Below are positions 3,188-53,393 of a stretch of 64,000 nucleotides of DNA, in pieces. Every line of letters begins with the position of its first letter. Position 1 is the stretch's first letter. This stretch comes from a virus: IMG/VR virus record IMGVR_UViG_3300017527_000515, positions 51,458 to 115,457 of that record; one strand, 5' to 3'. The position numbers were made by a program, and so were the translations under genes. The notes under the pieces are model-generated. The model had not been told where the DNA came from. It saw only the letters and a program-made list of their open reading frames with translations, and made no database searches.

Positions 3188-3590
3188 ACGGTAGCCTCTT
3201 TAATTCGCATTTATTATAAATATGTTGAGGACACGACCCCTTACCGTCGTACCCGTTACATTTCCCACAATAATAGAATATTCTATTAGTCTTTCTAAGT
3301 CCGCCTGGGTCGGGCATTTGCCCCATAGCAATCCTAGTAAATATTCTATCTGAAAGATGTTTTCTAAATACTTTTTCTATTTCCTTCATGGTGTATCTGA
3401 CTTCTGCATCGCAATCATTACATGTCATTACCAATATATCACTTATGGTCCCATCTTTTAATTTATCTATATCATCCAGTTTGAATACTTCTGGGTGCTG
3501 CCACGCCTCCATAGTTAATCTCTGGTTGTACATAAGCCTTCCCTTGTCGCAAGAATCACACGGTAAATATCTTATCATATCACTAAACAT
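3177..3590 (-). CDS. Small Cys-rich, putative zinc-binding protein
   Basis: 137 aa with CDSC, CNDC, CGKC and further Cys; AGGAG RBS upstream; in operon orientation. Confidence 0.7.
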   Translation of the reverse strand: MFSDMIRYLPCDSCDKGRLMYNQRLTMEAWQHPEVFKLDDIDKLKDGTISDILVMTCNDCDAEVRYTMKEIEKVFRKHLSDRIFTRIAMGQMPDPGGLRKTNRIFYYCGKCNGYDGKGSCPQHIYNKCELKRLPYGF

Positions 3591-3600
3591 ATCCTACTCC

Positions 3601-6600
3601 TTATACAGCAGTACCAGCAAAAGTACCGCCTCCTAGTCCCCATTTATCTGTATACTCAGGATCGCCGCCTGCTAATATCATAGCCCTATCATACTTGGCC
3701 TGTTGTGTGTAAAATCTCAAAGAATAATATGAGTTGCCTGGATCTATAGGTTTACTAGCATCTCGTTCAAGGGGTGTGCCAATCCCAGCATGATCTACAT
3801 GTATATACCTACCACTAAATACATTCTCTGGGCCGCCGAATAACATACACTTTTCTCTCCTGAAGTTACTGGACCATGTGTAATAGTGACCGCCTGGCCT
3901 CCAGAAATCGTACTGCTTAAAGTCTTTGTATCTCCAATGCCTTTCGAATGGTAATTTTTCTGAATTTATCACCAGATTAGCTGAGGGAAATGACTCGCCT
4001 ATTGTGTTTAAAAATGCTTCACATTTATAAGGGGCTACTGGAGCATAGTTTATAGTATCACTAGATGGATCTAAATTATATGCATACTCATACAGATCTC
4101 GTTGCTCTTTAGCCTCTGTTTCATGTAGATTATCATATGTAACTCCTACTATGCGTTCGTCGTCGGGGTGTGATATTCCAGTAACAATTACTTTAGTTTT
4201 ATCCATAGCCACAACTTCTTTATCAGCAAATCTAGGAGAGCGTAGGGAGAAATATTGTCCCATGTTCAGTAGATTATCCTCGTGTTTTAAATGATCTCCA
4301 GGACCATCTAAATTAATACCCTGGCCGCCTATATCTGATAATTGTGAAGCTATATATTTTCTTTCATATGTTTTAATATTTTCGTATTTTATATCCACAT
4401 ATCTAGCGAAATATAACTCTACGCTGTCCACAGATATAAAGCTGCCTGCATAATTATTTAAAGTTACCTGCACGCTATTTGCTATTTTATTTGCCATCTC
4501 ATAAGGACCTACCAAGAAATCCATATATATAATATATTCTTCTTGGCCAGACGCTGGGTATTCTGGGGAACCAGCAGCTGAAGAAAGTCCTTTCGGTGAG
4601 CCGGTGCTTCCATCATTGAAATTACATGACACGCGTATACCAGGTCTAACCACTGTGTGTATGGTAGGCCTTGGTGGGTCCGAATCATTTAGCCCCTGAA
4701 TATCTCCCCATATACCCCGTACCACAACTCTAGATAAAGGAGCTACAGACACTGGAGTGTAATCTATCACTACACTTCCAGAATCCCATACAAAAGAGCC
4801 GGGTATATTCATATCACCAGCTGTTTCTGAGGCTGTATTGCCCAGATCCATCTCCTCTATAGTCTCCTCTTTGGGTAGATAATACAGTCTATCTCGTGTC
4901 ATCTCGGCTATCAATCCTCTGTTGTAATAACCATAAATATATCCTAGATTTATTCCGGTGTCTGGAGTTTTACCTATTATACCTTTACGTTCGGCAGCAT
5001 CAGCATCTTCGATGGTAAATGATGCTGAACTATCAAACAGCATGTTATCTTCATGTATCCAATCCGATCCGTAAGCCTTCTCATATATGTTGTCCTCGCC
5101 CTGGCCTGCATCCGTATCAGCGCCGCCACCTTCATCATTCCAATCTACTGGTTGTGATGCCACATACTCATTCTCACCGTACAGTACTTCAAATGCTCTA
5201 GGATGTGCACCACCTATGGACAATGTTGGATATACGGACAGAAATCCCTCTTCGAACTTCGGCGCTGTATATACTATTTTGTAATCACCTTCATCCAATA
5301 TAGTTCTATGCTCGTTTTTATAATAATCCCATATGTATGGTGCCTTCTTTAAATCTACAAAATCTAAGAACCCCACGGCTGTTGTCGTATCAGTGTCGGC
5401 GTCCTCATCCTCTCCGGGCTCTGTTACTGGTAATTCATTAGAAGCATTTCTTTCTATTTCCAGCCAATCCTCCTGCCAGGCCCAAGCAGCCTTTTGTTTT
5501 TTTAAATAGTAAAACACAGCTTTAGTTGCTATAGTACCTATGGGGTATGTGGGAAGTGGATAACTACTATTACCTTCATGATGCACTTCAAACAACTCAT
5601 CCCATCTGTATCTACCGCCCAAAGCTTCTGGATCATCCTCTACTTCCTCTTCGGTAGGCTCGACGGGTTTTCGCTCTTCATTTACAGCTGCACAAGTAGC
5701 CATGGTCATTTGATGGAAATATCTAAAAGGTTCGAACCCTTGATCTGGGGATATACCTACATACTTATCCTCATAAGCGTCGTCATAAGAGTTAAACCCT
5801 GAATAAAAACTGCTATGATCTAACATCAAAGGCATCCAATCAGCCTTTTGTAATATCCCATTCACTACAAACGGTATTATATGAGTAATATAATCCTCAC
5901 TTAAATATTTCTCTACGTATTCTCTACCTTCATTGCCAAACGGAGGTGGATACCAACCATTCTCAGCGTACTCTCCTAAATCTACTGGGCCCCTCTTAAA
6001 CACCCTACCGGCAAAGATTACTGAAGATGCCTCGGCATCACTATACCAAAAATCACAACCGCAGTCACAAGAGGATGCCCAATTACCTCTAACATCACCA
6101 AAAGCATCGTATTTATAAGGACCACAGTATCTATAGTCCCATCTCTTCAGTACTGTTCCACCGCCTACAAATTCTTTTTCTCCAGTAAGTGGGTTAACAT
6201 TACCGCCAGAATCGGGACCTACATAACCAGCTTGACAATTATTACATACAGTAAATTCATCATACATATCATAGCCGCGGCACACATTATAAGGAAACCA
6301 CATAGGCCCTTCCCATTTTTGCCATGAATGTAGATGATCTCCACAGTTAGGTACTTCAACGTGTTTATATGGAGCTGATAGTGGTGCATCCTGCTTGATA
6401 TCTATACAAAAACCTGATCTAGGCTGTAGTGCGTACTGTCTACCTTCCGCGCTATATCTATAGAATATATCCACGCCACGGCAGCCTTCTTTAACAATTT
6501 GTGTTACCATTTTAGTTGCGAATGAGTTTATAGTTCTCCCATTGTCGTCCTTGAAATGAGCCATGAATTGTACAGAGCCTCTAGATATACCATTTACCTC

Positions 6601-9255
6601 TAATGACCCTCCGCCGCCGAATATATTATACGGAGTACCCACAAGAACATTAGTTTCATTTTTACCACCCCCGTATTTTATTACACCTTCGCCAGGATTA
6701 TTGGTTAATTGTATGTAACCATAATCCAAGACTAGATCCCATTGGGAATTTCTAAACGTCATCTTGTGCTCTTCATCTACAGGTTGTAATACCGCCATAG
6801 CAGCGCCTATGTAATTATCGTCTTCTATAATAGATTCTAACTCTACCTCATCTGGTAAGCCGCCGGGTGGGTAATCCTCGCCGCCGATATAAACTAACTT
6901 GGCATTTATTATTTCCCAGTCATACACATAATTTATGTTTTTGTCTTCTAATTCTATAAGAATCTTATTTGATTGGCCTATCCCGCCCCAAAACTCACAG
7001 GATACATCTGTCTCTTCTACTTGCTCGTATGCGTAATCGAAATACCTTTCGCCAGTCCATAGGTTATCCAAGCTGAATGTTGATACTATTTCTGTGTCTT
7101 CGCCAAACCTAGCTCCGCCCATTGATACTATACTTGCAGTGGCTGTGGCGCCAGGCTCTATAGCTGTAGGAACTTTATTCTCCCAGCCAGTATCATTATC
7201 CTCATATAAATGTGTGTACTCTGTCTGTTTTACTACTCCGCCGTACCAAATACTATTCACTTCTCTCCATCTATATTCCCACGTACCATCTCCTAGATCT
7301 ACACATACTAGTAATAGGTTAGGATTGCTAGAATAATCTAGTCTTACTTCTGATGTCATAAAAAATCCAAACTCATCATCAGACGCCGATCTCGCTATAT
7401 ACCCCGGCGCTTCAGCAAATCCTCTAGATACAGTCTCCCTTAAAAAATTATATACATCTTCTTTTATTATTTTTGCTGGCCGCCCGAATATGTTATCATC
7501 TTTAATAGCATATACTCCGGTGAAATAACCCAACATACTTGATATTGGAATTCTGTTAGTGTTTATAACATAAACTTGTTTATTGGTATACGTTTGCCCT
7601 ATTGTTTTTATACGATCTCCTTTAATATTATTAGATCGTTTTGTGTATCCTGGGTCCCCAGCATCTCTACAAATCTCAGAATTAAAATAATTATTATCAT
7701 ATGGCGGATACACTACCGTAAGAGGAGCAAAATCAGGGAAAGTATGTTCTCTCACTAGATTTGGATAGTGTCTTTGTCCCCCCTCTGTACTAGTTCCTAT
7801 CTGTGCATGGTGGTACTCAACATCTTCTGCCTCAATATAGGCTTTGGTAAATTCCCTCATATGTAAAGGAGATGGCTGGCACAACCATAGTTTTTTACCT
7901 ACCATCTTACTGTCAGTAACTCCACTTTCGCCGGTATCATCCTCTATCTTTTTCCAATTAGTAAATGTATATATAGCAGGTGTATGTGGGTCATCAAAGT
8001 TGGGTTTGATATTATAGAAAGTATCGTATTCATCTTGACTGTCCCATGTAGATGCCCAGAATCTAAGCTCCAACACCTGGTTAGCTGTAATAGGCATACC
8101 AGCTTGTGTTCTAGTAGACGTAACATATATCCATTCACCAGTATAGCATGGGCATTCTGGTCGGGCGCCATTACATACTGGTCCGCCACCCTTAGCCCAT
8201 ACACCGTCTAATGCTAATTGTGCTCCTGTGTGGTCTTCCCACGCGCCGCCTTCTTGTGAAAGGTCCTCTAATACTCGAGTATTAAACGGTACAGCATCTG
8301 AGTGTGGGCACTTACAGAACTCTACTCTACCCCCATCATCAAATATATCTGGATCGCCTTCCAAGTATATGGTAGCACCGTATTCGTCTATGTGATATTC
8401 CCGGCCGGTATCTTCATCCCACCATTGGCATTTTTGAAATCTTGCGCGGTCGTTGAATAACTTATAGTTTAGTGGTAATCTATATCTATCATCATAACCG
8501 TCGTCATTCTCCCATGCTTGGGCTCGTTCCCAACCTTGCTTAGTGATAGTGATGTTATCAGGTTCTACATCTCCTGGAGATTTGCCAGCGGGGGATATAA
8601 TACCAAACCCCATCTGATATGGTCTGTATAAATTACATACTACAGGAAGTTCCGATAGACGGTCCTCAGCATCCTCACTCTCCGATATTATACTACAACC
8701 CTGTTCTCCTCTACCCCAACCATGACAATCACATTTACCGACACCGTCGCCCTCTGAATCATTATAGCCCCAAACATCATCGCGTTTTATGGATTTGAAT
8801 ATAGCATCTTTATCACCACCCAGAGATTTTTCTCCTAATCCAGTAACATATGGGTTAGGTGCGGTACAAATCCATTCCTCTGGATCATGTTCAGCGCCGG
8901 GCTCGTACGCACTACACCAACTACGTCTACCTAAGAAGTCACATTGGCCAAAATTGAACCCAGATGGTATCTCTGGTTTAGGGTCGTTTGGATTATCTGA
9001 TGTGTTGTCGGTCTCATAACTACAACTATAGCCTGCACCCTCGCCCTCGCCTTTCTTAAACCATGCGCACACTGGAGGCATGCCTTTTAGAAAGTACTGA
9101 CAGGTTCTCCAAGCCCTTGCTCCTTCGCCCGTGGATGCTCTCAGACCAGTAGAAACATCTGTATAGTTCCAATCAGAGTAAGGAGTTACGTCATCCCAAC
9201 AATATTCCCATTGGGTTCCGTCCTCAAATTTTACTGATATGCAATCTCCTGCCAT
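3601..9255 (-). CDS. Large (1884 aa) Cys-rich, acidic virion/tail-tip protein
   Basis: Long ORF coupled (TAATG) to the upstream gene; two Cys clusters; W/Y/D/G-rich; lies in the structural operon. Function is inferred from context only. Confidence 0.65.
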   Translation of the reverse strand: MAGDCISVKFEDGTQWEYCWDDVTPYSDWNYTDVSTGLRASTGEGARAWRTCQYFLKGMPPVCAWFKKGEGEGAGYSCSYETDNTSDNPNDPKPEIPSGFNFGQCDFLGRRSWCSAYEPGAEHDPEEWICTAPNPYVTGLGEKSLGGDKDAIFKSIKRDDVWGYNDSEGDGVGKCDCHGWGRGEQGCSIISESEDAEDRLSELPVVCNLYRPYQMGFGIISPAGKSPGDVEPDNITITKQGWERAQAWENDDGYDDRYRLPLNYKLFNDRARFQKCQWWDEDTGREYHIDEYGATIYLEGDPDIFDDGGRVEFCKCPHSDAVPFNTRVLEDLSQEGGAWEDHTGAQLALDGVWAKGGGPVCNGARPECPCYTGEWIYVTSTRTQAGMPITANQVLELRFWASTWDSQDEYDTFYNIKPNFDDPHTPAIYTFTNWKKIEDDTGESGVTDSKMVGKKLWLCQPSPLHMREFTKAYIEAEDVEYHHAQIGTSTEGGQRHYPNLVREHTFPDFAPLTVVYPPYDNNYFNSEICRDAGDPGYTKRSNNIKGDRIKTIGQTYTNKQVYVINTNRIPISSMLGYFTGVYAIKDDNIFGRPAKIIKEDVYNFLRETVSRGFAEAPGYIARSASDDEFGFFMTSEVRLDYSSNPNLLLVCVDLGDGTWEYRWREVNSIWYGGVVKQTEYTHLYEDNDTGWENKVPTAIEPGATATASIVSMGGARFGEDTEIVSTFSLDNLWTGERYFDYAYEQVEETDVSCEFWGGIGQSNKILIELEDKNINYVYDWEIINAKLVYIGGEDYPPGGLPDEVELESIIEDDNYIGAAMAVLQPVDEEHKMTFRNSQWDLVLDYGYIQLTNNPGEGVIKYGGGKNETNVLVGTPYNIFGGGGSLEVNGISRGSVQFMAHFKDDNGRTINSFATKMVTQIVKEGCRGVDIFYRYSAEGRQYALQPRSGFCIDIKQDAPLSAPYKHVEVPNCGDHLHSWQKWEGPMWFPYNVCRGYDMYDEFTVCNNCQAGYVGPDSGGNVNPLTGEKEFVGGGTVLKRWDYRYCGPYKYDAFGDVRGNWASSCDCGCDFWYSDAEASSVIFAGRVFKRGPVDLGEYAENGWYPPPFGNEGREYVEKYLSEDYITHIIPFVVNGILQKADWMPLMLDHSSFYSGFNSYDDAYEDKYVGISPDQGFEPFRYFHQMTMATCAAVNEERKPVEPTEEEVEDDPEALGGRYRWDELFEVHHEGNSSYPLPTYPIGTIATKAVFYYLKKQKAAWAWQEDWLEIERNASNELPVTEPGEDEDADTDTTTAVGFLDFVDLKKAPYIWDYYKNEHRTILDEGDYKIVYTAPKFEEGFLSVYPTLSIGGAHPRAFEVLYGENEYVASQPVDWNDEGGGADTDAGQGEDNIYEKAYGSDWIHEDNMLFDSSASFTIEDADAAERKGIIGKTPDTGINLGYIYGYYNRGLIAEMTRDRLYYLPKEETIEEMDLGNTASETAGDMNIPGSFVWDSGSVVIDYTPVSVAPLSRVVVRGIWGDIQGLNDSDPPRPTIHTVVRPGIRVSCNFNDGSTGSPKGLSSAAGSPEYPASGQEEYIIYMDFLVGPYEMANKIANSVQVTLNNYAGSFISVDSVELYFARYVDIKYENIKTYERKYIASQLSDIGGQGINLDGPGDHLKHEDNLLNMGQYFSLRSPRFADKEVVAMDKTKVIVTGISHPDDERIVGVTYDNLHETEAKEQRDLYEYAYNLDPSSDTINYAPVAPYKCEAFLNTIGESFPSANLVINSEKLPFERHWRYKDFKQYDFWRPGGHYYTWSSNFRREKCMLFGGPENVFSGRYIHVDHAGIGTPLERDASKPIDPGNSYYSLRFYTQQAKYDRAMILAGGDPEYTDKWGLGGGTFAGTAV

Positions 9256-9569
9256 TAGAGTTTTTTAACCTCCATAGTCATTTTACCTGTGAATTCATTA
9301 ACTGTGTACCAAATCTTCACTGGCTTATCATCAACGGTATCGTAATAACCTATAGACCTTGATTCTATACGAAAACTTTCCGGTACTCCAGGTACAGCAG
9401 AACCACGTTTTTTCTGATCGTAGGCCATTTTATTATCTAACGTCCACTGTCTCCCTTCGAAGTGAAGAGTCACTCTGACTATATTTATCTTTGGTATCTT
9501 CTTCCAGCCCATTTGGGTTTCTCTGATTATGGTGCCGTCAGAGTATTCTACTTCCCAACCTCGTCTCAT
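9255..9569 (-). CDS. Hypothetical protein, paralog of 13635..14093
   Basis: Start revised to ATG 9569 (MRRGWEVEYSDG), with GGAGG at 9574-9578. The track's TTG at 9587 lies inside the terminator U-tract. Confidence 0.7.
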   Translation of the reverse strand: MRRGWEVEYSDGTIIRETQMGWKKIPKINIVRVTLHFEGRQWTLDNKMAYDQKKRGSAVPGVPESFRIESRSIGYYDTVDDKPVKIWYTVNEFTGKMTMEVKKL

Positions 9570-9581
9570 ATTGCCTCCTAT

Positions 9582-9628
9582 AAACAAAAATAGGGAACAG
9601 ATATAGCACTACGCCATCTCTGTTCCCT
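9582..9628 (-). terminator. Intrinsic terminator downstream of 9706..11271
   Basis: Minus strand AGGGAACAGAGAT-loop-ATATCTGTTCCCT (stem about 13 bp), followed by ATTTTTGTTT. Confidence 0.7.
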
Positions 9629-9705
9629 TCCTTAACTTTAGAATAGAATTATACAGCGGCATGTAAATGCCTCCCTTTTCCTAAAAAATTCTTAACCTGT
9701 CCTAA

Positions 9706-37000: not shown

Positions 37001-40000
37001 CCAAACTCTCCGGTTTGAAAATTAAACCCTCTCTGACCTTGTAGTGCTGTGGTTGTGGATATATCACTATAGAATCTAGCACCTAGATCAAAATCTTTCT
37101 TGAATGCTTTCTCGTCTAAACCTACTATACCGGCAGCGGCTCCTGTTACAAAGGTACTTAAGTTCTCTAATCTGTTTTCTAATTCTGACTGTACTCTACC
37201 AGCAGGGAATATGGCTTCTACCATATCTGCTACTTCGTCAATAGATTTGGTTTCTAACTCGCCGACACCTTCTTTGGCTTTATAATTATAATAGGTAACA
37301 AAAGCTTCTAGAACCCCGTCTACATTCTTCTTTACCTCTACTACACCCTGCTGACCAGCTATACCTGCTCTGGCTGCGGGCTGAGTTAAGAATGTTACTA
37401 TGTCGCCGGTAACTAATTTAGTTCCTTTCTTGGCCTCTTTTTGTATTATACCAGATCCTTCCAATAGCGCCTTAGTAATATCCTTAGCGGCGCCTATAAC
37501 AGCTCTTCTTGTAGGAAATACCTGTTGTAATATAGTAGCCCCTTGCAAGTCTCTACCTTGTATCTCTGGAAGATTTAGAAACTCAGGGAAGTTTATAGTT
37601 GATCTACCACCTGCTGCAGTAGGATCAAACAGTGTAGATGTGCCCTTGGGAGCATTTGGAAATTTAAGTGCTCTCTCTAACTCTCTTTGGGCATTTGCCG
37701 CATTTATAACTGGATCTACTTCCACAGCAAACTGGAAGCCCCTAAGTAGTTCCGGGTCTCCTAGTAATCTAGCTATAGTATCTCTATCTACAGCTGAAGC
37801 TCCTGGAAATTTGAATATACCAGCTAGAGTTTTATTAAAATCCTTAGCTGTACCATCATATATTTTTTTAAGTTTTCCTAAAGCATCTTGTAGAGTAGAT
37901 ATATCTTCATCAAACGCTGTAGACAGTGGATTCTGTGATCTGGCCAACAGAAGATCATTTAACCTGCCGGTTAGCATCTCCATTTGTTTAGCTGGAGAAA
38001 CCTTAACTATATCTTTTAATAAAGGACCGAATCCTGGTACTTCCCCTAAAGCAGTGCCTAATATATTCTTTATCGATTCCCCAAAATCTACCTTAGTTAG
38101 ATCCTGAGTGAATCTCTTCAATACATCTATATCAGTCTTGGCCAGTTCCAAAGCGCTGGCTCTTTGTAGGTTAGCTATATATTCTTTATAGTCGCCAGAT
38201 AGTTTAAGTATAGCGTTACCTTGTTTATCATAACTCAACACTAGCTCATTATTTACCATGGCTAGTTCGTTAGCCCACTTGGTAGCATCTTTTTGTATAT
38301 CACCTAATGCTATTAGAGGATGAGTGTAATTATCTGATGCTTTTCTAACCTCTTTTAACTTAGGATCTGCCTCTACCGCGTTAACTTCTTTTACTTTCTT
38401 TTGTAATCTATCATATTGTCTAGATAGGGTAGTTAAATTCTTAATTTGATCTTCTTGTACTCTTCTGGAATTATATACAGACTGTGCATAATCCTGAGCA
38501 GTCATTCCTGTTTCTTGTATTCTACTTGCGAGTTCCTTGAAAGCCGGAATTAATGCTCCTACTGTTATAGCCATAGGAGTTATAGCCTTAAGCAATCCTG
38601 GATCAGTATCACCTATAAATTTAGCAAACTGAGCACCAGCTTCTCCGAAGTACTTACCGAATAATTCAAATGCTCTGCCTGAATTTTTAGCTACCTCCTC
38701 CATCACATTTATTACAGCTATAGTAAGATCGTCTTTCCATCCAGGTATCTTAGTAGCAAGTAGTTGTCCTACATCAGTGAATAAATCAGTGCGCTCGGCC
38801 CATTTCTTAACTTCGTCACCTAGCCCTTCTATTGTTTTACCCATCTCCTCGGCAGAAGTTCCTCCGGCAGCTGCCCATGTGTTAAACGCCATACCAGCTT
38901 CTTTGATTACGTATGTTAATTTTCCAAAACCAGAATGTAGATCATCTAAACCAGCAGCCTTTAGAGCATCCGGGACGCCTTTAGCAAAAGACTTTATACC
39001 TTCTAACTGAGGTCCTCCTTTGCCTCCGAAAATCTCAAAGGCAGATATGTCGAACTCTTTAGATACAGATCTAACAAAAGCGTCTATTACTCCTTTACCC
39101 TTACCAAATACTTCCACTAACTTATCAAATATATCCACTCCCTTAGCAGCATAACCAAAGAATAATGTAAGCGCTGCACCGGCAGCTTTAACCGGGGTAG
39201 GTATAGCGGACATGAATTCGAATACGGTCTTAAGAGCTTTAAGTCCACCCTTGAACACTGGGAATATAAACTTACCAAGCTCCATCTTCAGCTCAGTAGC
39301 AGCTGCTCTGGTTTGCTCTAACTGTTTAGCGTACGTTTTCATAATCTCAACGTTACGTCTTTCAGCCGAGCCCTTAGAGTTAGTACTGTCCTCTATGGCG
39401 TCCAGTACCTCATCCCAATTATCCATAGCAACCAACAGTGCGTTATACTGTCGGGTGCCACCTAGAGATTGTGCTACATTAAGTTTTTGGGCATTAGTAA
39501 GCATAGCCCACTGTTTGGACAGATCAGATAAAATATCAAAACCACGTCTATTCTCGCCGGTTGCTGTTATAGTAGGAATACCTATTTCTCCAAGAGCCTT
39601 AGGACCCTTTTCCGAGAATAAACGACGGGCAATGAATCTCATCGCCGTACCGACTTCCTTACCAGACTGTCTGGTTACAGAACCGATACCAGCCACAATA
39701 CCATTTAACTCATTGAATGTGAAACCAGCATTCTTGGCTGCTGCAGCAGACTTCTTGATAGCGTTGGCCATATCAGCAGCGGTAATAGCGTGTCTGGCCT
39801 CAGTTTCACTCCAAGCGTCTAGTGCCATATCCGCTGATCCCATCTCAGTTCCGAATGATTTCATGGCAGCAGTTAGTGCCTCTGTAGCTTCTGAGGCTGA
39901 CAGTGTAGAAACGTTAGCTGCTAGAGTAGAAACTCTTGTTCTTTCTATAACTTCTGATTGTTTTAAACCTTGTTGTGCAAAGATCTTCATACCACGAAGA

Positions 40001-43000
40001 ACTTCATTTATACTAACTCCGTATTCTTTTGCGAACATTACAGCAGACTGAGTTAGAGCATCAAAGTCAGCTTCTAGTGGGTTCATAACCATACGAAGCT
40101 GTGCTATACTAACTTCTATGTCAGCCAATTCACCTACTGAATCCTTAAGTTGTTGTACCCCACCATATACTAAGGTAGCTGCAGCTCCCCACATAATAAC
40201 ACGTCTGGCAGCAGATCTAAATGTTCCGCCTGCCATGTGCATCTTATCTATAAGGTCTGTAGTTCTATGGGTGTAATTCTCAACTTTACCAGCTGTATCA
40301 TCAGTGGTCTCGCCGAACTTTTTAAAGTCGTGTCTGAAATTTCTTAGAACATTGCCAGCAGAGTCTGTCACCTTCTCAAAATAACTAAAGGATTCTCCCA
40401 CTCTGGGACCAGTTCCTGGTGTGTCTGACTCAGGACCAGGCCTTTCGGCAAATTGTTTAAATTTCTCTATATTTCTTCTATGTAATGCTTGCTGTTGGTT
40501 AGGAGGTAAGAAAGTAGGAACCTTAACAGCGCCAGTCTCATACTCTCCGAAGGCTCCGCGCTGTAACCTACCTAGGTCTATCTTTCCGTATACCTGCTCT
40601 ATTTGTTTTAGATATTGTAGTAGAGATCTAACCTGAAATTTCTTCTCTACGTCTGTCTGGAATTCGTCTGATAAATTAAACCTAGAATACTGAGATAATG
40701 CTTCTCTTAGTACCCTAGCCCTCTTAGCTACCTTTTCAAAATCCCATGCCTCTGTAGCATCTCTCCCCTTTCTCTCGAAAAGATCTACATCCATCAGCAC
40801 TCTCTTGGCAGCTTCATCCACGTCAGCTAGTTCATCTACTAGCTTTCTAATCTCTTCGGCCGGGGCCCCTAAGCCTCCAGCTTCAAGTTTATCTATTAAG
40901 TTTTTATATATACCCCTGGTGCGCTCGTCGCCCTCACCAAAAGGTTGTTTGGTTTTTTTATACAGATCTTCCGGTGTCTGGAATACCCCAGCCTGTTTAG
41001 CTAGATCTGGTAGTAAGAATCTTCTGTCTTTGGTATATATGTCTGTAGTTTTACCTAGACTCTTAACTATAAACTCACGTGATTTCTCCACTCTCTTTCT
41101 GAAGTCAGAAAACTCTCTTGTAGCAGGGCCCTGAGCGTTTGCTACATCGAATACCTCTTCTGCCTGTTTGGCCTGGAAAATAAGAAAATCACCCATAGAT
41201 ATACGCCAAAGCTGCCACGCCTTCATAGATTCTTGGAAGGTTATGTAGTCTCCTTCTACTAACTCAGTCAGTAATTTAGAGAACTGTGGGCCTGTGGGTG
41301 GAGCTTCCCCTGCTCCGCCAGAGAGAGCAGATTTAATATCAGTGTGCATCTTCTCTATGTTTTCATTAAAATTTAGATCACTTAAACCAGACTGTATGGC
41401 TATAGACCCCTGATGTAGCTCTGAGATAGCAGCTAGCTGATCTTTAAGAGGATCAGGAAATTTCTTTACCTTATCTTTACCTAAAGTTCTTTCTTCTGGA
41501 GTACCGCCAGTAATCTTTTCTCCGAACGTAGCTCTACCGTATTCAGGATCTTCCTTCATAGCCTGGCCAATATCTTTAGCTCTATTCTCGGCCGCTTTAA
41601 AGTTAGCTCTGGTTTCTTTGTACACCCCTTCTTTGCCTTCCATGAACTCAAAGGCTTTCCTAGAAAGTTGTACGTACTCCTCTATGAATTCATCTGATTG
41701 CTCAGTAACTCCATAGATCTTATCTAACTCTTGTTCTAATAGGTAAGATTTTAGATTTCTAGCTTTGGAGAATGCCGGAGATTTACCACTAACTCTCTTA
41801 CGTAGTTTACTAACGAGGTCTTGGTGTTCCTCTGGTACATCTTCTATACTGGTAGATAAATCTAGTACATAGTTATTTACTAGTTCTCTAGCTGTCTTCA
41901 GTGTCTCTAGATCTGACTTCAGTCTTTCTGGGTCGAAGCCGAATGTTACTGATTTAGCGGGTGTGGTTAGACCAGCATCTTCAGAAGGTATAAAGTCTAT
42001 AGATGCTTGGACTCCTGGAGCAGCCTGTCCTGACTGCACAAGAGCGCCTAGATATACATTAAGCTGAGATCTATAGTCCTCTAGCTTCTGTCTAATATGT
42101 TCTGGTATTTCTTTATCTAATATATCTGCTAGGGCTATGGTACCTTCTGGTCCTATGGCTCTAGATATACTTTCAAATTTAGCGAAGGTCTCACCGGTAG
42201 TTTTAATATCAGATATTTTTTCTACCTGACCTTGTGCGTTTTTATAGGCTACATCAATGAAGCCAGTGATGGGACCTCTGACTCCCTCAACAAACTCTTT
42301 AGGCTTCAGGTATACAAATTTTTCTATCTCTACCTCTCCACCTCTACCAGCAGCCTCAGCCTCATCCTTAATTTTCTTCTGCATTTTTGCATGGAGAGCT
42401 GTACCAATATCGAATGCTGATTGTACATAATCACTCTTTAGCTCTTCTGCATCAAGTCCTAACAACTGTCCTGTGATGGCTTCTAGTTGAGACCCCTGAC
42501 GGTTGCCCTTTATCAGTTCTCCTAAGTCTGCGCCGCCACCTTTAAACTTACTAGCAGTAAATACATTATTCAGATTTGTAAAAAATTGTTTTTTAAGTTG
42601 ATTATATTCTTGTTCTAAATTAACATCAGCTCCCCTAGGACCTACTTCTACTCCTGGGAAGTATTTCTTCTGTAATTTATCGAACTCAGGTTTACCTATG
42701 TTCTCAGAGTGTCTATCAAAATCACTTGATATTTTTTTATAATCTTTTAGCTGTGATTGTAGGCTTCTTATCGAAGCTTCGCCATGCTGATCGTGTTGAT
42801 CTCTAATCTCCGACAGTGCTGATTTTGTTTGTTGCTGTGGGGCAAAGTCAGGATTAAGCTGGTCGGTATAATCTCTTCTGGCGCCAGTACCACCGCCGCC
42901 GCCAAAGAACACTCCCACACCTTGGGCTACACTGTGTATATGTACTGGAACTACTCCTCCAGTCATAGGGAATTGTCCGCCGACACCGCCTCCACCAAAT

Positions 43001-46000
43001 ATAGTACCAGAACCTCCCGGACCGTGTATGCCCTTAGCTTCTTCTCTCATAGCCTGGCCCTGGATAGCAGCGGCCTGCATGTCCTGGGAGAATTTATAGC
43101 TTCTAGCACTTTGTCCAGTGGCCTTAGGTCTGGAAAGATCACTGGCTTCTGGAAATAACGATAGAGTTGTTATACCTTCCTTGGCTCTAGTAGATAAGAC
43201 ATCTAATATCCTATCCATTTCGTAAACTATTTCAGCTTTGGCTGCCAGCTCCTGGGCATAACTCTCAGCTGCTACTTCTACTTCTTCTTTATTAAAATCT
43301 GGATCTTTAGAAAGTAGCTTTTCTCCATGCTTTCTAAAATCCTTCAATAGCTTCTCAGAAACATCTATCTTCTCTTCCCTAGTCAACGTGGGAACTCCCA
43401 CAAGATCAGCCAGTTTTTCTATCTCTTTAATCTGATCTTCTGGAGCCTTTTTTAATATATCTCTAGTAAGACTAGGTAATTCTTCCTCTAGTAGAACTCT
43501 GCTTTTTAGAGCATCTAGACTTCTGTCGACTTTGGTTATATCAAATCCTTCAGCTTGAAGCTTCTTAAACTCATCGTCTATTAGTAATTGGTCTCTATGG
43601 ATATTATCCAGAGTACTCTTGACTAATTGAGAATAAGCTCCAGCATCTAAACCTTCAGCAGCTTCAGCTATAGCGTCTTGTATGTTTCTAGCAGTAGCCT
43701 TGGCTTGTTTATATTTCTTTAATAATTCCTCTTGCTCTTTAGGTTTCTTTCTTAAGAATTGTACACCTTGAGGCACAGTAGGTTCCCCATACCTCTCCGT
43801 GAATCTCTTTTCTTGTCCCTTAAGATTAGATTCCTGACGTGTTATATATAATGGTAGATTAGGAACTGTGATATGTTCACGTACATTGATACCACCTGCT
43901 GCTATTTCTTCTTGTATAAGATTTTTAGCATAAGATTTAGGATCTCCTATCTGCGCACGCTTATCTGGGGATAGCTTTTCTATATTCCTTAGAATACCTT
44001 CCATGGCGCCTTCTCTTACCTGGTCTGCCATTTCGCGGAAGAATGATTCTAAACCAGTAGCCTTGACTGCCATGTCAATCAGCTCGTCTCTATCAGCTCT
44101 GCTCAAATCGAAGGAGCTATACTCAGTACCTCTAGCTTCATAAAGTTGCTCTAGTTCTTTTCGTATAGTAGAGGTATCCATCTTACCAAGTCTTAGCTTG
44201 GTAGACTTATTAACTGCCGCTTCAAAGTCTGCTATCTCACCCTCTGGGAGTAAGGAAGCCCATAGTTCAGTTACCCCATCATACCCTTGTGCTATACGGC
44301 TTTGTATTTCACCGGCTATGGTAGACCCACCAGCATGCTTAACATCCATACCCTTCTGGATGGCAAACCTAAATACCTCATTAAATTTGGTATAAAAGTC
44401 TCTGGCTATCTCATCCTGGCTGCCGCCTAATATTCCTAGATTAGGATTACGGCCAGAGAAGCCCTCACTGGGTTTAAATTCAGCCCCTCCAGTACCTAAC
44501 AGACCAGAACCGAATCCAACACTAGATTCTGCTAATCTATTAAGTCTGTACAGAGCTTCTGTTTCAATACCTGTATGAATCTTAAATAATTGGGCCTCTA
44601 CCGCATCCCTGTATTTAGATTCGAAAAGCCTGCTTCTGACTGCTGCCTGGATCTCATCTACAAAAGTGGTACCCATAGCAGTGTCTAACTCTTCTATAGC
44701 TTTATATATATCCTCAACAAAGCTTACTCTTTTTTCTATACCGCCTTGTTGTTTAACCGCCTTAAGCTCACTAGCTACATCGCCGAATGGAGATTCTACA
44801 TCTCCTACCTGTTTTAGTAGTACGTCTCTGCTGGAACTAGATAGTATAGTATCCTGTATTATACCTTTTAGTACCTCATTAATGCCTTCTACACCTGTAC
44901 CACCTAGACCTAAAATACTCAACTGCTCACTAGGAGTAGCATACTCTAATGTAGGAGTCTTTAGGGCAGCTGTGGGATCATCTGGATCTATAGATGCCTG
45001 ACCAGTTAGAAACGGTTTGACTAAGAAATCAAACCCCTTCTCTTTAGGGAATTTCTTATAAAAAGACTCAGCCATTTCTGACAAGATGGCATCACCTGTA
45101 GGTTGTTGGGAACCAAGCGCATCAGCAGTGAATATATCTCTATATACAGATTGTAGGCTATCGTTGAACTCAGCTACACTCTTATGATGTTTGGCTATCT
45201 CCTCTCTAGCTTCTGCAGTTCTAGCAGTATGTACAGCTATTTCATCACCATCGAAGTCCAACTTGGCGGTATGAGCAGCGTACTTTGGAGTAACCTCTGA
45301 CACGGCCCTGGCCAGTTTGTCCATCAAAGCAGATAATTCATCTACTCTGGTTTGATCCACCGGCATATCGTTAGCGTCTGCTTGTCTAAATAACTGCTCA
45401 CGCTGTTCATGTAGACCTTCGATTATCCCTTTAACCGGAGCTATTATATCGTTTAGTTCATCTAGATTTAAGTCTGGCGCGCCTGGAACCACAAACGCAT
45501 TCTTAGCTCTTTCTCCCTGCGTACCAGATAGTAGTTCTGCCTCGTAAGGAACAATAGAAGATACTCCAGTAAATGGATAACGGATAGCCTCCACAAAAGT
45601 TTTAGTTCTTTCTAACTCTTGTGCAGCCAGTTCGGAAAGAGGACCATCATCACCTACCAAATCCTCTAGTCGTTCTCTATAACTTAGTATATCATATAAC
45701 GTACCGTCTATCTTACTAGTCTGAGCACGCGGTCCTTTCTTGCCAAATTGAATCTTCTGCTCAAACTCAGATATAGGCAATTTTTTAGCGGTAACTTCTG
45801 GTATACCTAATTGGTGCTGCCTTAGTACTGGGAATCCAGCCTTACGTTGTTTGGCTATTCTTTTGCCGTGCTTTGTCGAAACAGATTGTATATCATTTAT
45901 AACATCAGCCAGCGTATTGGCCGCATCATCTGGTAGTTCTGATGAAACAGAAGCTAAAGCTTTTTGGAAGTCCGTAAATTCCTGTGTCCTATCCACTATA

Positions 46001-49000
46001 GCATTAGTGGCTTTCTTCATTACAGCTGGGAACTTACGTGAGAATACAGCTGTACCTATAGCACCTTCTTTACCTACCGCGGCCTCAGCCAAACCGTGGA
46101 AATAATCTATCTTGGCTTTCTGTAGGTTATCAAGTGCCTGTTCGTATTTAAATTGTAACTCTGCGTCTACATCAATACCTAATTTAGCTGCTAGTTCTAG
46201 GCCTTGACCCTTCTGTACATCAGCAGCTAAGCGATACAGTTTCTTCTCAGTGACTGCCATCTCGTTAGCCATGAGTTTGTGCTTATCTTGAAGTGCCGCT
46301 AGTAGATCATTAGGGTCATCAGTAGCTCTACTCTTGAATCTGGAGTCACTCTCTAATACTTTCTTGAACATAGCTATGTTGTCAAACTCACCTTGTTGTA
46401 TTTCAGCTATGCCTTTTACTACAGTATTATATGTCTCTTGTGCTGACGGTCCTTTACCTATTAATAAGTCAGATGCTCTACCTATAGCTGTAGCTAAGGC
46501 AGCCTGCTCTGATTTAGTGCCTAATTGTTTTTGTAGAAATTGCTGTACGTTCTCGAACTCTGTTGGCCCTCTTCTTACTTCTTCGCCGTCTATTATCCTA
46601 GCCGGAGCCTCAGTCTTAGATAGAGCGTTAGTTAGAGTATCAAATATCTTTCTGAGATCAGCCGGTGCTTCTGGAGACTTTGAGTATCTAAGATTTTGAG
46701 CCTGTTTCAACATCTCCGCTACTTCTTCGAACACTCTTTTCTGTACAGTAGTAGCCAACTCACCCTTACCGGTTAGTAGATCGCTTTGGGCTGACTGTCT
46801 AGACAGAAGCTCTGCTTGCTTTTCTGCTGCTCTAGGATCTCCAACTCGGAGCATCTCGTTGAGCTCCATCTCCAGTTTTTCTATGTCAGCTTGTAGAGTG
46901 GCCGGTCTATCTAATAACTCTTTGGCCTTCTTGGCCATATTAACCACGTGCTGTAGTCTACGACCTATATTTTCTACACCTCGCTCTCCGCCTATCAGTT
47001 CCTCTGCGTAAGTACCTCTTGCTAAAGCTCCTGGTACATAGAAAGGCTCGCTCTCTCCAGCCTGACCACCTACCTTAGGTATGTCAAGGAAGAAAGGTTT
47101 GGAGAATTTCTTAGTATCAAATATAGTATCTTTAAGGGTACGCGGATCTGTTTCATCAGCTTTTTCGCTAAGAATACCAGTAGTTTGGTCAAAGTACTTA
47201 ACGGAGCTCAGGGTTACCTTATCAAGAACATTTATCTGTCTTTGTTGTAGCGTACCTGTCTCATCAGCCATGAACTGTAGGGCCTTTAAGAACTCCAATT
47301 GTTTTCTCTGATTGGCGTTGGTAGAGCTCGTGATTTCATCAATTAAAGCAGACTGCTCTCCGAATACAGTAGAGTACGCTGACAATACTGGTATATCCAC
47401 ACTGGCGCCCTTTATACCTCTACGCACATCTTCTTTGCGCCACGGCTCGGTTTCCCCCGTCTCCTGTACAATAGATAGGAACTTAGTACCTACTATACTC
47501 TTACGTCTCTCACCAAATTCATCTATAACAGTGGAATAGTAATTAGACATAGCCTCTAGAGCTTTAGCTCGTTCAGCTATGATCATTTCCATCTGGCGTT
47601 TTTCTTCTTCTGTGTCTCCTGAGGCTTTAGATTTAGCTAGGGCAGCGGCTAATTGTTTTATCTTATCAGTATCACCGACGGTTTCAAAACCTAAAGCGCT
47701 TGATACCTGGCTAAGCTCACCTGCCTTACCGCCACCACCTAATAATCTCTCGTACTGATTTTGGGAGAATTTGGTAGGTAGTGTAGTGAATCCCCGTTCA
47801 CCAACGTCTGTTATGTTACCAAGTACTGCCTCTAGAACTTCAGGCTGTAGACCACGTTTACCTATACCGACTGAACTTATTCTAACATCGATGGCTTTTT
47901 CTTTTACTAATGCCCCACCTATCTCATCTGTAAATAATTTCTTTATTTGTTTGATTCCAGTTACATCATCTGCTAAGCCGGTCTCGCCGCCTGCCAGCTG
48001 TCTACCTGTAATTGCCTGGAATGCTTCGGCTGCTTTCTTGAAAACTCCAGCCTGTTGTGCCTGCTCTTCTGGTACTACTATAGCAGTTTTAGCGTCTCTA
48101 AATAGGTCCAGTATGAATTTATTACCAGACGCTGTTAGCATTTTCTTCAGTATAGCTACATCAAAACCCTCTGATGTCAGCTTCTTTTCATACTTATCTA
48201 CTACCTCTGCCAGAAGCTCTCCCATGCTCCTAGGCAACACTGCCACACCTAGGCCAGCCTTCTGTCTCTCCTCATCAGTAAGGACCTTGACTTTAGCTTT
48301 TGGGAATGCCTGTAGAATTTTACCTATCTCAGTAGCTTCGCCTTCTTCTAACCCTCCAGGAGAAACACTTACCCCCTTAGATCCGTATCGGGATGTGAAC
48401 TTTCTACCGAAGGAGTTTAGGAATACCTCTGTCAATCTGGCTTGCTGTACCTCTACCTCCTCACCGCGGACTACAGTAATAGCACGTTGAATCTCATCTA
48501 TGAAAGCCTGGTCGGCTCTACCTTTATATTGTTCTGGTACACCGAGCACCTCTTGGATTTTGTCCAACACAACTGCAATATCTTTATCTTTTATTGGTCC
48601 TGCTTGTAGATCACTAACCCCAGGCGCAGTTTCCAACCCACCACGGATTCTACCTCCGGGGGCTGGTCTTACTAATGTTTTAGTTATAGTAGTCAGCGCT
48701 TTAGCCAAATTACCAGACACTAGAATCTGATCTTCCATTGTACCGGCAGTATGGCGTAGTTCTGTAAGAACATTAAAACCATAACCCTTTGTGCCTAATC
48801 GTCCTGCAGATATCAGTTCGGATTCCCTCTCAGATCTTAGAGCTGGAAATTCAGTCCCTATACCTTCAAGAGTTGTGGCTTTAAATTCCTTTGCTAGTCT
48901 GTCTAACTCTGTCTTGGATGAGGATATAGCATTGGTAACACCAGCTATATTCCTACCAGTCTGAGTAAATTGAGCTCCGAACGGAGCAAGTTCAGGAAGG

Positions 49001-52000
49001 ATGTCGGTGTACATTTTGGTAGAAAAGGCATCCAATGCACCTAGATATTTGGTACCTTTGTCAGTCTGGCCAGGTCTGTAAAACTCTCCTTTACCAGCAA
49101 GTGCTTCTGGTATGCCTAAGGAAGATACAGTACGTACACCCTCTTTTAAAAGTTGTTGATTAGTTATGTAAGAATCTCTTACTATCTCGTTTAATCTAAC
49201 ATTAAGATTCTTTATGAACTCCTTCTGGGCTGCAGGATCTAGATCTCTACGGCCTTCATCAGCGTAAACATCTGATGTTCTTGTTAGAAGGTTTAATACG
49301 TTTTCTTGCTGCAAACCACGACGTGGGCGGCCAGGCTCTATTAAAGGTAGAGACTGTACCACTTGGTTGATTGCGTTCTCATACTCACGGATGGCTTTGT
49401 CGAATTGGGGCTTAGAACCTAATCCTTTTAGGGGCTCTACCCCAGTTTTTTCGCTGCCTTTTAGAACTCTCTGGATAACATCATAGATATTTTCGAACTC
49501 TATTTTGTCCATAGACTTCACAATATCATATGCTGATAGCCCTGCTGCTCTAAGGGCATCTAACAACTTATTTACATCTCTGTCTACTTCATTAGCCTTT
49601 AAGGCTTTCTCCATGTCAGCTATTAATCTAGATCCGCCCCTACTCTTACTTCCTCCTAATTGGACGGCGCTTACATAAGCTGCACTAGGAATCTGCTCTC
49701 TCAATGCTTGTAGGTTTGCCTCGTTAGCGCGGGCATAGTCCTCCAACATCTGGCGAGCCAGATCTCTAGCCTTGTCTAATTTTAATCCAGCAGGCTTAAC
49801 ACCAACTTCTCTAATCTGAGCAGCAAAATTCTTTTCATATACTAAAGCTTGTTGTTCTTGTAGCTTCTCATATATCTGCTCAAAACCAGTCTTAAACGTA
49901 CCAAACTTCTGCAGTGCTCTCTGACTACCTCTAGCAGTTTCAAAGGCAGGCGCACCTGTTTTAGTCAGCCTAGCTGCCGGTAGACTTACAGTTCTCACTA
50001 GCTTTTCTTCTTTTAATGTTCTAGCAGCTTCAGTTCTACCGACAGTAGCTTTGAATACTTGCTCTAGTGTGGCTCTGTCTTGCCCCAGAACCTTGTTTAA
50101 TTGTTTTACTATGTCAGCACTAGGCAACACACCTTTGATATCGGTTTGTTTAATGTTTACCAGATCGCCTTGAAATCTCTCTATTTCTTTAATCTGTTTG
50201 ATCTGATCTGCAGTGACGCCCTTTAACCATTCAGCTATTTTGCCAGTAAGGTTGGCGGGGGAAGGGAAATTAGCTGCTAGTTCGGTAGCTAACACATCAG
50301 TTAGTTCTTTAACCATGGACTCGGGGCTGCCTTTGGTGGCTGCACCGCGGCCCTTAACGAATAACTGTCTCTTGATTGCCTCGACATTAGCTATCTGGAA
50401 AGCGTGTTGTTTGCCAGCTTCTTTTACATTAGCGCCTGAAACAACCTTGAAGAAATCCTGTACGCTCTTCTCAGAACCGTCTCTTACGATCGACCAACGA
50501 TCGCCTGCTTTTTTAAACTCGGAATTTAATGTAGTAACTATATAGTCTTGTAGATCTACTAATGAAGATGATAGATCATTAATACGTTGTTGTATAAGTT
50601 GTTTATGTTTCTCTTGTGCCTTAGACGAGAAAGTCCCTTCGAATTCTAAGTTGATTCCTTTTTTAGTAGCTGGTAAGGCAGCATCTGGGTATGCACTTAC
50701 AGATGCTGGTCCTCTTAGCCTTGAGTTTAACAAGTCTATTTGTTTAATTAAAGGACTTAGATCCTTAGAACCTTGCCCAGGCAGAGCTGGGGCAGGCCTC
50801 GGAGCAGGTTGTCTGGTTGCCTTCTCAAAAGATTCTGCGGCTTTAGTCAGCTTCTTTGAGGCTTCTGTTGCTTCTTTAAGACCGGCCTCAAATGCTTTAT
50901 CAGTTTCTTGTGGAGATTTGTTTATTTTCTTCTGTACTTCATTAACTAAAACTCTTAGCTGGTCTAATTTCTTTGTGTTTTCACCAGCTATACCTCTGCC
51001 TGCAGCCTCTTTAATAGGAGTAGGCTTCATCTCTCTTAATACTTTTACTAATATATCTTGCTCTGAGGTGATCGTAGCTAGATCTTTTTTGTCTCTGGTC
51101 CCAGATGCAACTTCTTTGGTGACCTTTGCTACTTCAGCCTGGCTCTCTCTGATTACCTGCTTGATGAGTTTACTTATCTCACCGAAATAATTCTTTATAT
51201 CTTTAGCTGGAAGATCGGGTAGATTAGACTTACCACCTGACGGGGTCGCAGCCTTAGAACTCTGATCTAATTTCTTAGTTAAACTATCAGTACTCTTGAC
51301 CACCTGTTTCATGGTGTTATCAAGTTGTTTTATTTCTTTAGGAGCACCTAGTTGTTTGGCTCCAGAAGGTTTATATTCCAGCTCTACTTGTTTAGATATA
51401 CGTTCGAACTTAGTTAGGAAGTCGTCAAAGACTTTCTTGAACTTATCAGAGTCCAATATTTTCCCTGGTACATCTTTTACAGATCTAAATTTCTCTGCCA
51501 TCTTCTGCTTGGTGTCTCTAACAGCATCACCAAGGTCTCTCATTATACTTTCTTGTTCTTTGGTGAGAGTCTTAACAGATTTCTTTAAATCCTTATAATC
51601 CTGGGACAGTTCCTTGGCTTCTTTTCTAAGGTCAATAAGAGACTTTATTACCTTGGGAATCTCTGTGACGTCTATTCCACCATCAGATTTCTTAAGCTTA
51701 GCTATGGCCTCCACTGCTTTGGTGGTAGCGTCTGCACTTCTTTGAATTGATTTGTAGGTTTTGGTAGCCTCTTGTATCGACTTGCCGAGTTCAGTGGATA
51801 CACTAGATCTAATGGAATCACCAATAGCCTTGGAAATAATTTTTGAACCTTCGGGGCCCAGTTCTACACCAGTTTGTCTTGATAGGGATGTATTAAGTTT
51901 ACCTATAGCAGCAGCAACTTGCTTATCTACATTACGTAAAGCAGCCTCCACACTCTTAGTGTGTTCAGGACCACTGCGCTGACCACGTTTAGACATCTCC

Positions 52001-52373: not shown

Positions 52374-53393
52374 CTATCTCTTCCGGCGACGCGCTTTCTT
52401 TTTAACAGCGGTCTTGTCCTTGATCATCTGTGCTTCTCTTGGCGTGGTGTAATCTATGTCCTCATAAAGTTCATGAGACTTAGTTACGATAACTTCTTCT
52501 TTGTTAAATGCTGATAACTTACCTTTGTTGCCATGTCTATTTTTATCTCTCTCGGCTGCGTCCTCTCTAGTCCTTTCCTCGTAATACGATTTCATATACG
52601 CATCGAGAGCGTCATCGTCTTCGACGATGGTGTCTGGCGGTCTATCCTTTGGCATCATTTCATACACGTTCTGATAGAAATTAGACCAGTACGCCAGATT
52701 TAACATGTCATTTGTATATTGTGATGTCGGCACACCAAATAATGGGTCCGACACCTTCTGACTTGTAACATAACGTATCCTCCACAAGCTATGTCGTGCC
52801 AGATATCTTATTGTCTTAGTATCTATACCTGATCTAAACCTTAGAAACTTTGTTAGTACTACATCTCTGAAGGCTAAATCATTTTCTTTCAGTAAGTCCT
52901 CAAAAGTTTCCCAACATTTGTTGCCTTCTTCGTCTTCTACACATGCCCAACAAAAATATAAAGCTCGTTCCTCTTCAGCCTTGCTTTCTGCTGACATTAT
53001 GAGCTTCGACGTTCTTTTATATTCTAAAGTGAGGATCTGCTCATCAATCTTGGTTATAATTTTCTTAACCCTGTCCTGATTAGCTTTAACCTTAGTAGTC
53101 TTACTAAGGATCACCTCTTGGGCTTCTTTCTGAATCCTAAGTTGATCTAATTTATCTTGATCCTCCTCAGTGAATATATTTCTTTCCCTGATTAGAACCT
53201 CAAGATCTTCTATAGGCAACATACCGGACTCTACGGCTCTTTTATAAGCTTTATCATATATAAGGTCTGCCTTTGCTTTAAGCTCGTTGTCGGGCTGTCT
53301 AATAAACAACAGGCGGCCTTCTAAATTGAGCAGCTCAGTGCCGGTAAATATCCGAGTTAGATATCGTTCAACGTCTTCAGACTTTAATTCCAT
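52374..53393 (-). CDS. Tail assembly chaperone-like protein 2 (339 aa)
   Basis: Immediately upstream of the TMP; helical; N-terminal ~190 aa paralogous to 53393..54172. Confidence 0.65.
   Translation of the reverse strand: MELKSEDVERYLTRIFTGTELLNLEGRLLFIRQPDNELKAKADLIYDKAYKRAVESGMLPIEDLEVLIRERNIFTEEDQDKLDQLRIQKEAQEVILSKTTKVKANQDRVKKIITKIDEQILTLEYKRTSKLIMSAESKAEEERALYFCWACVEDEEGNKCWETFEDLLKENDLAFRDVVLTKFLRFRSGIDTKTIRYLARHSLWRIRYVTSQKVSDPLFGVPTSQYTNDMLNLAYWSNFYQNVYEMMPKDRPPDTIVEDDDALDAYMKSYYEERTREDAAERDKNRHGNKGKLSAFNKEEVIVTKSHELYEDIDYTTPREAQMIKDKTAVKKKARRRKR

Follow-up and report, generated by a model that had tools for sequence, protein, structure and literature searches.

What is a segment resembling the β subunit of cellular RNA polymerase (RNAP) doing inside the gene for a giant phage tail protein? 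The question is raised by a stretch of 64,000 nucleotides of viral DNA (the window), which forms the final 64 kb of the 115,457-bp IMG/VR record IMGVR_UViG_3300017527_000515, a record rated 40% complete by CheckV. The segment spans positions 47254-48885 and, like all window features described below, lies on the minus strand. Judged from sequence comparison, it very probably represents the double-psi β-barrel B (DPBB-B) half of a single-chain two-barrel RNAP, which is embedded in the tape-measure protein of an uncultured jumbo phage and which may be active and injected into the host. The RNAP module is best read as a new, unannotated family and as a variant of the arrangement found in phage P23-45, where a virion RNAP is fused to the tape measure and accompanied by a free paralogue.

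The segment is part of a single open frame of 8,081 residues, termed P0001 (28078..52323), which codes for a tape-measure protein that encloses an RNAP module. The module comprises residues ~1100-2800 (43924..49026) and is followed by a TP901-type tape-measure core at residues ~4053-4374 (39202..40167; TIGR01760, E 5.2e-43; PF10145, E 5e-24; phrog_4211, E 1e-81). RNAP module and tape-measure core reside on the same polypeptide, and this arrangement is kept in ~60 full-length homologues. The extent of the module follows from homology across the P0001 family and from colinear matches to a paralogue of ~1,100 residues; within the family homology, residues 1810-2040 form a variable stretch. A full-library HMMER search retrieved relatives of P0001 in 103 clusters, mostly 6,800-8,000 residues long, none of which is annotated as a polymerase. 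Where members of the family are named at all in public sources, they are termed “TP901 family phage tail tape measure protein”.

The β-like half (residues ~1147-1690) was delimited by alignment to the profile of the paralogue and by weak structural matches to β and RPB2. An earlier note on this DNA had described it as the β-subunit-like half of an RNAP and had quoted a series of motif strings, all of which are indeed present in the same frame of P0001 and in the order claimed. The first, the ED motif AGTMEDQILVS (residues 1193-1203; 48715..48747), is the counterpart of β GYNFEDSILVS, as indicated by the conserved EDQ and by its pairing with the paralogue. The second, the two-lysine motif GRKFTSRYGSKGV (residues 1306-1318; 48370..48408), corresponds to β GDKMAGRHGNKGV on the basis of conservation, motif scan and hhalign. 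Both lysines are kept, while RHG reads RYG, as the earlier note had stated, and GDK reads GRK. Motif scan and paralogue pairing identify the third motif, IDVRISSVGIGKRGLQPEVLE (residues 1478-1498; 47830..47892), as the counterpart of β DIxxNP..PSR..GQILE; its core IDVRISSVGIGKRG occupies residues 1478-1491 (47851-47892) and EVLE residues 1495-1498. The fourth, IVGTKFL (residues 1610-1616; 47476..47496), is the probable counterpart of β VGYMYMLKL and was assigned through the paralogue. The DFDGD motif of the β′-like half follows at residues 2356-2360 (45244-45258).

The residues expected to matter are strongly conserved. In an alignment of the flagged region comprising 58 sequences of ~30-70% identity, at least 95% of the sequences keep E1197, D1198 and Q1199 in the first motif; G1306, R1307, K1308, R1312, G1314, K1316, G1317 and V1318 in the second; K1489, R1490, G1491, L1492, E1495 and E1498 in the third; and K1614-F1615 in the fourth. 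In Escherichia coli β, the catalytic centre is lined by E813/D814, K1065, K1073 and R1106.

The placement of the motifs was also recovered by an ungapped scan with BLOSUM62, in which the motif strings of E. coli β, read from rpoB, were scored at ~8,070 positions of P0001 and compared with 2,000 shuffles. The top-scoring positions for the ED motif (1192), the two-lysine motif (1306) and the GQILE-type motif (1478) coincide with the sites of the earlier note. These three top sites occur in colinear order inside a stretch of 300 residues, ahead of DFDGD. The two-lysine motif scored 38, a value reached in 3 of the 2,000 shuffles, and is the sole motif significant alone; the scores of the ED and NP motifs are not significant individually, since 1166 and 238 of the 2,000 shuffles, respectively, reach them. 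For the fourth motif (VGxxYxxKL), the scan of P0001 missed the proposed site.

The strongest evidence for the β-like half comes from an intermediate sequence. Near-complete relatives that carry the giant gene (contigs of 229-269 kb, one of them rated 100% complete) were scanned for Rpb1_2, and three of them were found to encode a second, free-standing single-chain β-β′ RNAP of 1,085-1,178 residues: G001 (L056:4215-7520, minus strand), G002 (L058:2001-5534, plus strand) and G004 (L057:2335-5589, plus strand). In Pfam, these proteins match Rpb1_2 above the cut-off and Rpb2_6 with E 0.002-0.005 (16.5-18 bits, the gathering cut-off of PF00562 in hmmscan being 23.4 bits), in the order β then β′. 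They harbour the motifs WEDQ, G/T-K-L-T-N-x3-N-K-G-V-I, IDVIV..KKRKNYGQILE, CGTVFWGV, ERFPCLG and LDFDGD, and appear in one source, where they bear no meaningful name.

An alignment of eight such sequences (A6, the P0225 family) connects P0001 with cellular enzymes. The flagged half of P0001 matches A6 in hhalign with Prob 98.9 and E 1.4e-17 over 410 columns, and the four motifs are in register. EDQ pairs with WEDQ, IDVRISSVGIGKRGLQPEVLE with IDVIV..KKRKNYGQILE, and IVGTKFL with CGTVFWGV. The full-length P0001 family matches A6 with E 1e-16, including further colinear matches at DPBB-A and at a bridge-helix-like segment, and a hidden Markov model built from A6 identifies positions 48370-48873 (residues 1151-1318) in the genome of the window with E 4.7e-5. 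The paralogue, in turn, leads to β: the top ~45 matches of A6 in the PDB are all RNAP β, with E 5e-4 to 0.04 (mycobacterial β, E 5e-4; Thermus, 1.3e-3; E. coli, 0.038). This alignment begins at the strand preceding the lysine motif and extends through DIxxN..PxRxNxGQILE, and hhalign of A6 against E. coli β 1031-1120 gives E 8.8e-5.

Taken together, the β-subunit-like nature of the segment is supported through homology via the paralogue. The residue-for-residue mapping of the second and third motifs onto β is confirmed because it is transitive: P0001 leads to the paralogue with E 1.4e-17, and the paralogue to β with E 5e-4 and 8.8e-5. The assignment of the first motif to the ED element of β is supported both by the way the motif lines up with the paralogue and by the semi-global hhalign comparison with E. 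coli β. For the fourth motif, the pairing with the paralogue and the position at which the structural alignment to β ends favour the assignment, while direct scoring does not.

Two further genes were observed next to the free RNAP genes. In G004, a LAGLIDADG domain splits a helicase (ResIII/Helicase_C; L057:6439-8874, plus strand), pointing to an intein or a homing endonuclease. In G001, the neighbour is an RtcB RNA ligase (L056:1608-2795, minus strand; E 1.5e-107).

The distance between the second and the third motif is a distinctive feature of the family. From KG (1316-1317) to D1479, the spacer amounts to 161 residues in P0001, compared with 22 residues in the paralogue and ~20 residues in cellular β, which bears out the lineage-specific insertion that had been proposed from a gap of ~160 residues. 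The additional sequence comprises two insertions, both recognized as gaps in the paralogue. Insertion 1 (residues ~1324-1357, ~34 residues; 48253..48354) has a predicted local distance difference test (pLDDT) score below 50 and is disordered in the structure models. Insertion 2 (residues ~1368-1472, ~105 residues; 47908..48222) is predicted as a helical domain (pLDDT ~90 in model 2) and includes an SGNKF motif conserved family-wide. With its family-wide SGNKF, insertion 2 is thus a conserved addition rather than junk. According to the profile alignment, the two insertions flank a short conserved GLGxAxxP element, which is shared with the paralogue.

The β-like half is followed by a β′-like half. 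The latter starts with a predicted clamp/N-terminal region (residues ~1690-1810; 46894..47256; identified with VIA-align on model 1) and continues with the β′-like DPBB-A region (residues ~2040-2400; 45124..46206), which includes RYPFTG (2248-2253) and KLDFDGD (2354-2360). In the 58-sequence alignment, KLDFDGD and R.P-F-T-G are as conserved as the β-like motifs. PF00623 (Rpb1_2) matches weakly at DFDGD in 18 of 31 family members (best E 3.9e-4), the sole hhalign match of the family profile to E. coli β′ is NADFDGDQMAVH (β′ 458-480, E 0.0085), and the DPBB-A region aligns with residues 767-835 of the paralogue (hhalign, E 1.1e-4). A bridge-helix-like segment at residues 2580-2601 shows a weak colinear hhalign match to paralogue residues 884-905 (E 0.12). 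In P0001, a helical hairpin of ~70 residues forms a further insertion between RYPFTG and DFDGD. A published filter for surveys of viral RNAPs, [RK]xP-x(20-100)-DxDxD, would miss P0001, because its [RK]xP-DxDxD spacer is 105 residues long.

Structural comparison supports the β′-like half. Residues ~505-1200 of model 1 (P0001 ~1690-2384) match residues ~19-618 of Rpb1, A′ and β′ with Z 8-9.6 in VIA-align; 235-279 residues are aligned, and the matched chains come from Pol I, II and III, archaea, vaccinia virus, African swine fever virus (ASFV) and plastids. The RNA-dependent RNA polymerase (RdRP) QDE-1 matches the DFDGD barrel with Z 9.9 over 143 residues. Since one of the best matches to this barrel in structure is QDE-1, and the superfamily includes RdRPs as well as PolD, the module might be an active two-barrel polymerase other than a DNA-dependent transcriptase, either RNA-dependent or primer-making in the manner of QDE-1, or it might act after proteolytic release. 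Tape-measure proteins are often processed, which would be compatible with such a release. We consider this explanation unlikely. With Rpb1, A′ and β′, the alignment extends over 235-279 residues of their N-terminal halves, compared with 143 residues for QDE-1, and the nearest solved relatives of the β-like barrel are cellular β subunits. Moreover, the only characterised tape-measure fusion is a DNA-dependent virion RNAP that stays in the full-length protein in virions.

Several observations weigh against the proposed RNAP. Direct searches with the P0001 family reach no polymerase β subunit at a significant level. The profile RNA_pol_Rpb2_6 (PF00562), which the earlier note had named as a check, matched neither P0001 nor any of 31 family members, nor the genome translated in six frames, at E <= 10; on this family it falls below detection, and the divergence of the enzyme is such that HMMER, Pfam and PHROGs do not recognise the RNAP module. 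Neither phmmer with residues 1001-3000 nor hmmsearch with the 31-sequence family profile found a polymerase in the PDB, and PHROGs and NCBIfam found none in the N-terminal 3,000 residues of P0001. The sole hhalign match of the family profile to E. coli β is the GDKMAGRHGNKGV motif itself (β 1063-1076) at a weak E 0.24. The semi-global hhalign of the family to E. coli β is likewise weak (E 0.029), although it pairs the ED motif with FEDS and the lysine motif with its counterpart; the β profile used there comprised only Enterobacterales-like β of at least 86% identity. This alignment places the later motifs differently, a placement that we rejected, as the paralogue-mediated alignments agree with that of the earlier note. 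No direct significant link therefore leads from the P0001 family to β. In wider surveys, tblastn retrieved no relative from 50,697 GenBank phage records, and a feature search of the ESM Atlas yielded only unnamed viral clusters, along with tape-measure clusters below 0.9.

Structure prediction adds further counter-evidence. AlphaFold models were calculated from family alignments for residues 1185-2384 (model 1, pLDDT 72.5) and 1140-1834 (model 2, pLDDT 67.9). In both, the motif loops fall below pLDDT 50, and no confident barrel was built. Foldseek returned no match at E <= 0.001 for either model, and the wide VIA-align search with model 2 mostly returned generic helical matches with Z <= 6.6. 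The β-like half recurrently matches β and RPB2 chains, with Z 4-4.9 in the noise range. These matches are colinear (model residues 16-481 against E. coli β 693-1236; plastid β 557-953; ASFV RPB2 822-1112), and the alignment with E. coli β stops at residue 1620, opposite β 1236 and near IVGTKFL. Also on this side of the balance are the Tyr in place of the His of cellular β RHG and the KxHAR element, which follows the fourth motif in cellular β and was not seen in P0001. In addition, the second RNAP was not seen in the 40%-complete record of the window and is absent from one 89%-complete relative (G003). Finally, the RNAP lies internally in P0001 (~1100-2800 of 8,081 residues), as opposed to N-terminally in P23-45 gp96.

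Some of these points would fit an inactive relic, in which the RNAP module now serves as bulk, ruler or plug in the tape-measure protein. The catalytic loops are not placed by AlphaFold, large insertions interrupt both barrels (34 + 105 residues in DPBB-B; ~70 residues between RYP and DFDGD), the lysine motif carries the His to Tyr exchange, and the KxHAR element of β was not found. Yet, the residues with a catalytic role in the cellular polymerases (ED, K, K, R, DFDGD) are all essentially invariant across 58 sequences whose identity is otherwise only ~30-45%. Since such invariance among divergent homologues is the pattern expected under selection for catalysis, and since the lysine motif departs less from the cellular consensus in P0001 than in the free paralogue, we regard a relic as quite improbable. 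The idea that the β-like motifs are coincidental, residues 1150-1690 forming a domain of other descent and the DFDGD region alone being polymerase-derived, could draw on the missing Rpb2_6 and PDB sequence matches, on ED and NP scores within the shuffle range and on β fold matches of Z 4-5, but is highly implausible in view of the paralogue match of E 1.4e-17, which covers precisely these residues and keeps the motifs aligned, the significant similarity of the matching paralogue segment to cellular β, and the colinearity of the top sites of three independent E. coli motif strings within 300 residues.

Assuming that the RNAP module is active, the most likely sequence of events can be outlined. 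The DPBB-B half would supply the ED pair, the two lysines and the arginine to the catalytic centre, and the next ~1,100 residues would form the β′-like half with the Mg-binding DFDGD loop. By analogy with P23-45 gp96, the giant protein would be packed in the tail lumen of the virion and expelled into the cell at infection. There, the RNAP module would transcribe the first entering DNA independently of the host enzyme, and the free-standing paralogue of ~1,100 residues would take over afterwards. We infer such a tail-delivered virion RNAP because the lineage repeats the P23-45 logic of a tape-measure-fused RNAP combined with a free paralogue; catalysis on a DNA template and a division of labour between the two RNAPs would fit the same scheme.

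The remainder of the giant protein is less readily assigned. Ahead of the RNAP module lies a Lys/Glu/Ser-rich leader (residues 1-1100; window 49027-52323), which is matched by no family and is probably coiled or of low complexity. The similarity of P0001 to its relatives begins only near residues 1100-1150, and P23-45 gp96 is without a counterpart of this ~1,100-residue leader. The C-terminal part (residues ~6000-8081; window 28081-34323) includes a PT-TG pre-toxin domain (residues ~6770-6832, E 4e-12), an HEIGGH string (6930-6935), two GGPK(D/E)D units (6365 and 6654) and several near-repeats ending in ...AEGG. Beyond the tape core, the C-terminal part looks like a cassette-like effector region. 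The 20 neighbouring genes (window 1-28067 and 52374-64000, all on the minus strand) have essentially no PHROGs or Pfam match, and in this lineage the virion module is dark matter.

Two relatives of P0001 deserve mention. In IMGVR_UViG_3300033388_002657 (L003 / L008, 59% identity), the giant gene does not stay in one frame: within the RNAP module it falls apart into three or more open reading frames, located in L003 at 2..2188, 2218..5562 and 5522..9670; frameshifts, assembly errors or a genuine split could account for this. Among 185,579 species genomes, a single P0001 homologue of 47% identity was found on contig JAUVDT010000035.1 (L070, 20,241 bp), in the bin of a gammaproteobacterial metagenome-assembled genome. 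This homologue may hint weakly at the host, or it may reflect an error in binning.

A virion RNAP fused to the tape measure has previously been described only in the Thermus phage P23-45 and its close relatives (PMC10770324), and in our literature search tape-measure proteins were linked to two-barrel RNAPs only in the P23-45 paper. The “Moraphages” (PMC12619734) were considered as a prior description and rejected, as they belong to a different T4-like lineage. The present findings suggest that the same solution, a tail-delivered polymerase together with a free paralogue for later, is used in a large and environmentally widespread family of jumbo phages. The P0001 family would thereby provide a second, independent system in which to study the passage of a polymerase through a tail tube, the coupling of transcription to DNA entry and the diversification of two-barrel RNAPs by duplication. 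With the paralogue as intermediate sequence, the family also becomes tractable for evolutionary placement.

A more far-reaching proposal is possible but doubtful. According to it, a widespread and uncultured jumbo-phage lineage with more than 100 protein clusters and genomes of 229-269 kb independently fused an RNAP, similar to cellular β in its lysine-barrel motifs, to its tape measure, yielding an injected “transcription syringe” of 7-8 thousand residues. Together with the paralogue, this RNAP would represent an unrecognised two-barrel family between the cellular/multisubunit clade and the compact single-chain clade of phages, and the conserved 105-residue helical insertion beside the lysine loop would be a new functional element. 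The insertion would conceivably contribute to tail threading or to the recognition of promoters or DNA ends.

Among the known and newly found systems, none is more closely related to the flagged region than the free-standing paralogue. All motifs are common to both, and the two are colinear through DPBB-A and the bridge-helix-like segment. Unlike P0001, the paralogue, itself undescribed, is compact, is not fused to a tape measure and lacks the Arg of R.G.KG. The hybrid-binding domain of cellular β/Rpb2 (PF00562) shares the same four motifs in the same order, and P0001 keeps the ED pair, both lysines, the arginine and the glutamate. In contrast to cellular β, the β-like half of P0001 is fused to a β′-like half and carries 34 + 105 residues inserted after the lysine motif. 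The impression of the earlier note that the motifs are closer to cellular RNAP than expected of a viral enzyme holds for the β-like barrel, the best solved relatives of which are cellular β subunits. It does not clearly extend to the β′-like barrel, as the DPBB-A of the paralogue finds its best match in P23-45 gp96 (E 8.3e-6, 74 columns).

The two-barrel superfamily also includes the RNAPs of phiKZ and AR9, crAss-like gp66, QDE-1 and YonO, among them phage-encoded and some virion-packaged enzymes, and QDE-1-type RdRPs and PolD are counted among the two-barrel enzymes (PMC10770324). In phiKZ and AR9, β and β′ are split over several subunit genes, whereas P0001 harbours both halves in one uninterrupted open reading frame. 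In the PDB profile search, A6 showed a marginal match to phiKZ gp71 (E 0.89) and no match to gp66 or QDE-1.

The nearest parallel in architecture is P23-45 gp96, an N-terminal two-barrel RNAP that virions contain within the full-length tape-measure protein and that transcribes the pre-early genes of an 84-kb thermophilic siphovirus (PMC10770324). Its minimal active fragment comprises residues 327-1124 of 5,002, its architecture is flat and clamp-less, and its paralogue is the non-virion RNAP gp64 (Chaban et al. 2024; PDB 8H2M/8H2N; PMC10770324). An hhalign of the P0001 family profile with gp96 residues 327-1200 revealed no similarity. The RNAP module of P0001 is about twice as long as that of gp96 and carries insertions in both barrels; a medium-confidence model suggests that it includes elements resembling the Rpb1 N-terminus and its clamp. 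The genomes differ as well, those of the P0001 family (229-269 kb) being of jumbo-phage size compared with the 84 kb of P23-45. Common to gp96 and P0001 is a single-chain two-barrel RNAP with DFDGD, which is joined to a tape-measure core in one open reading frame. In both proteins DPBB-B precedes DPBB-A, and in both lineages related genomes encode a free-standing paralogous RNAP.

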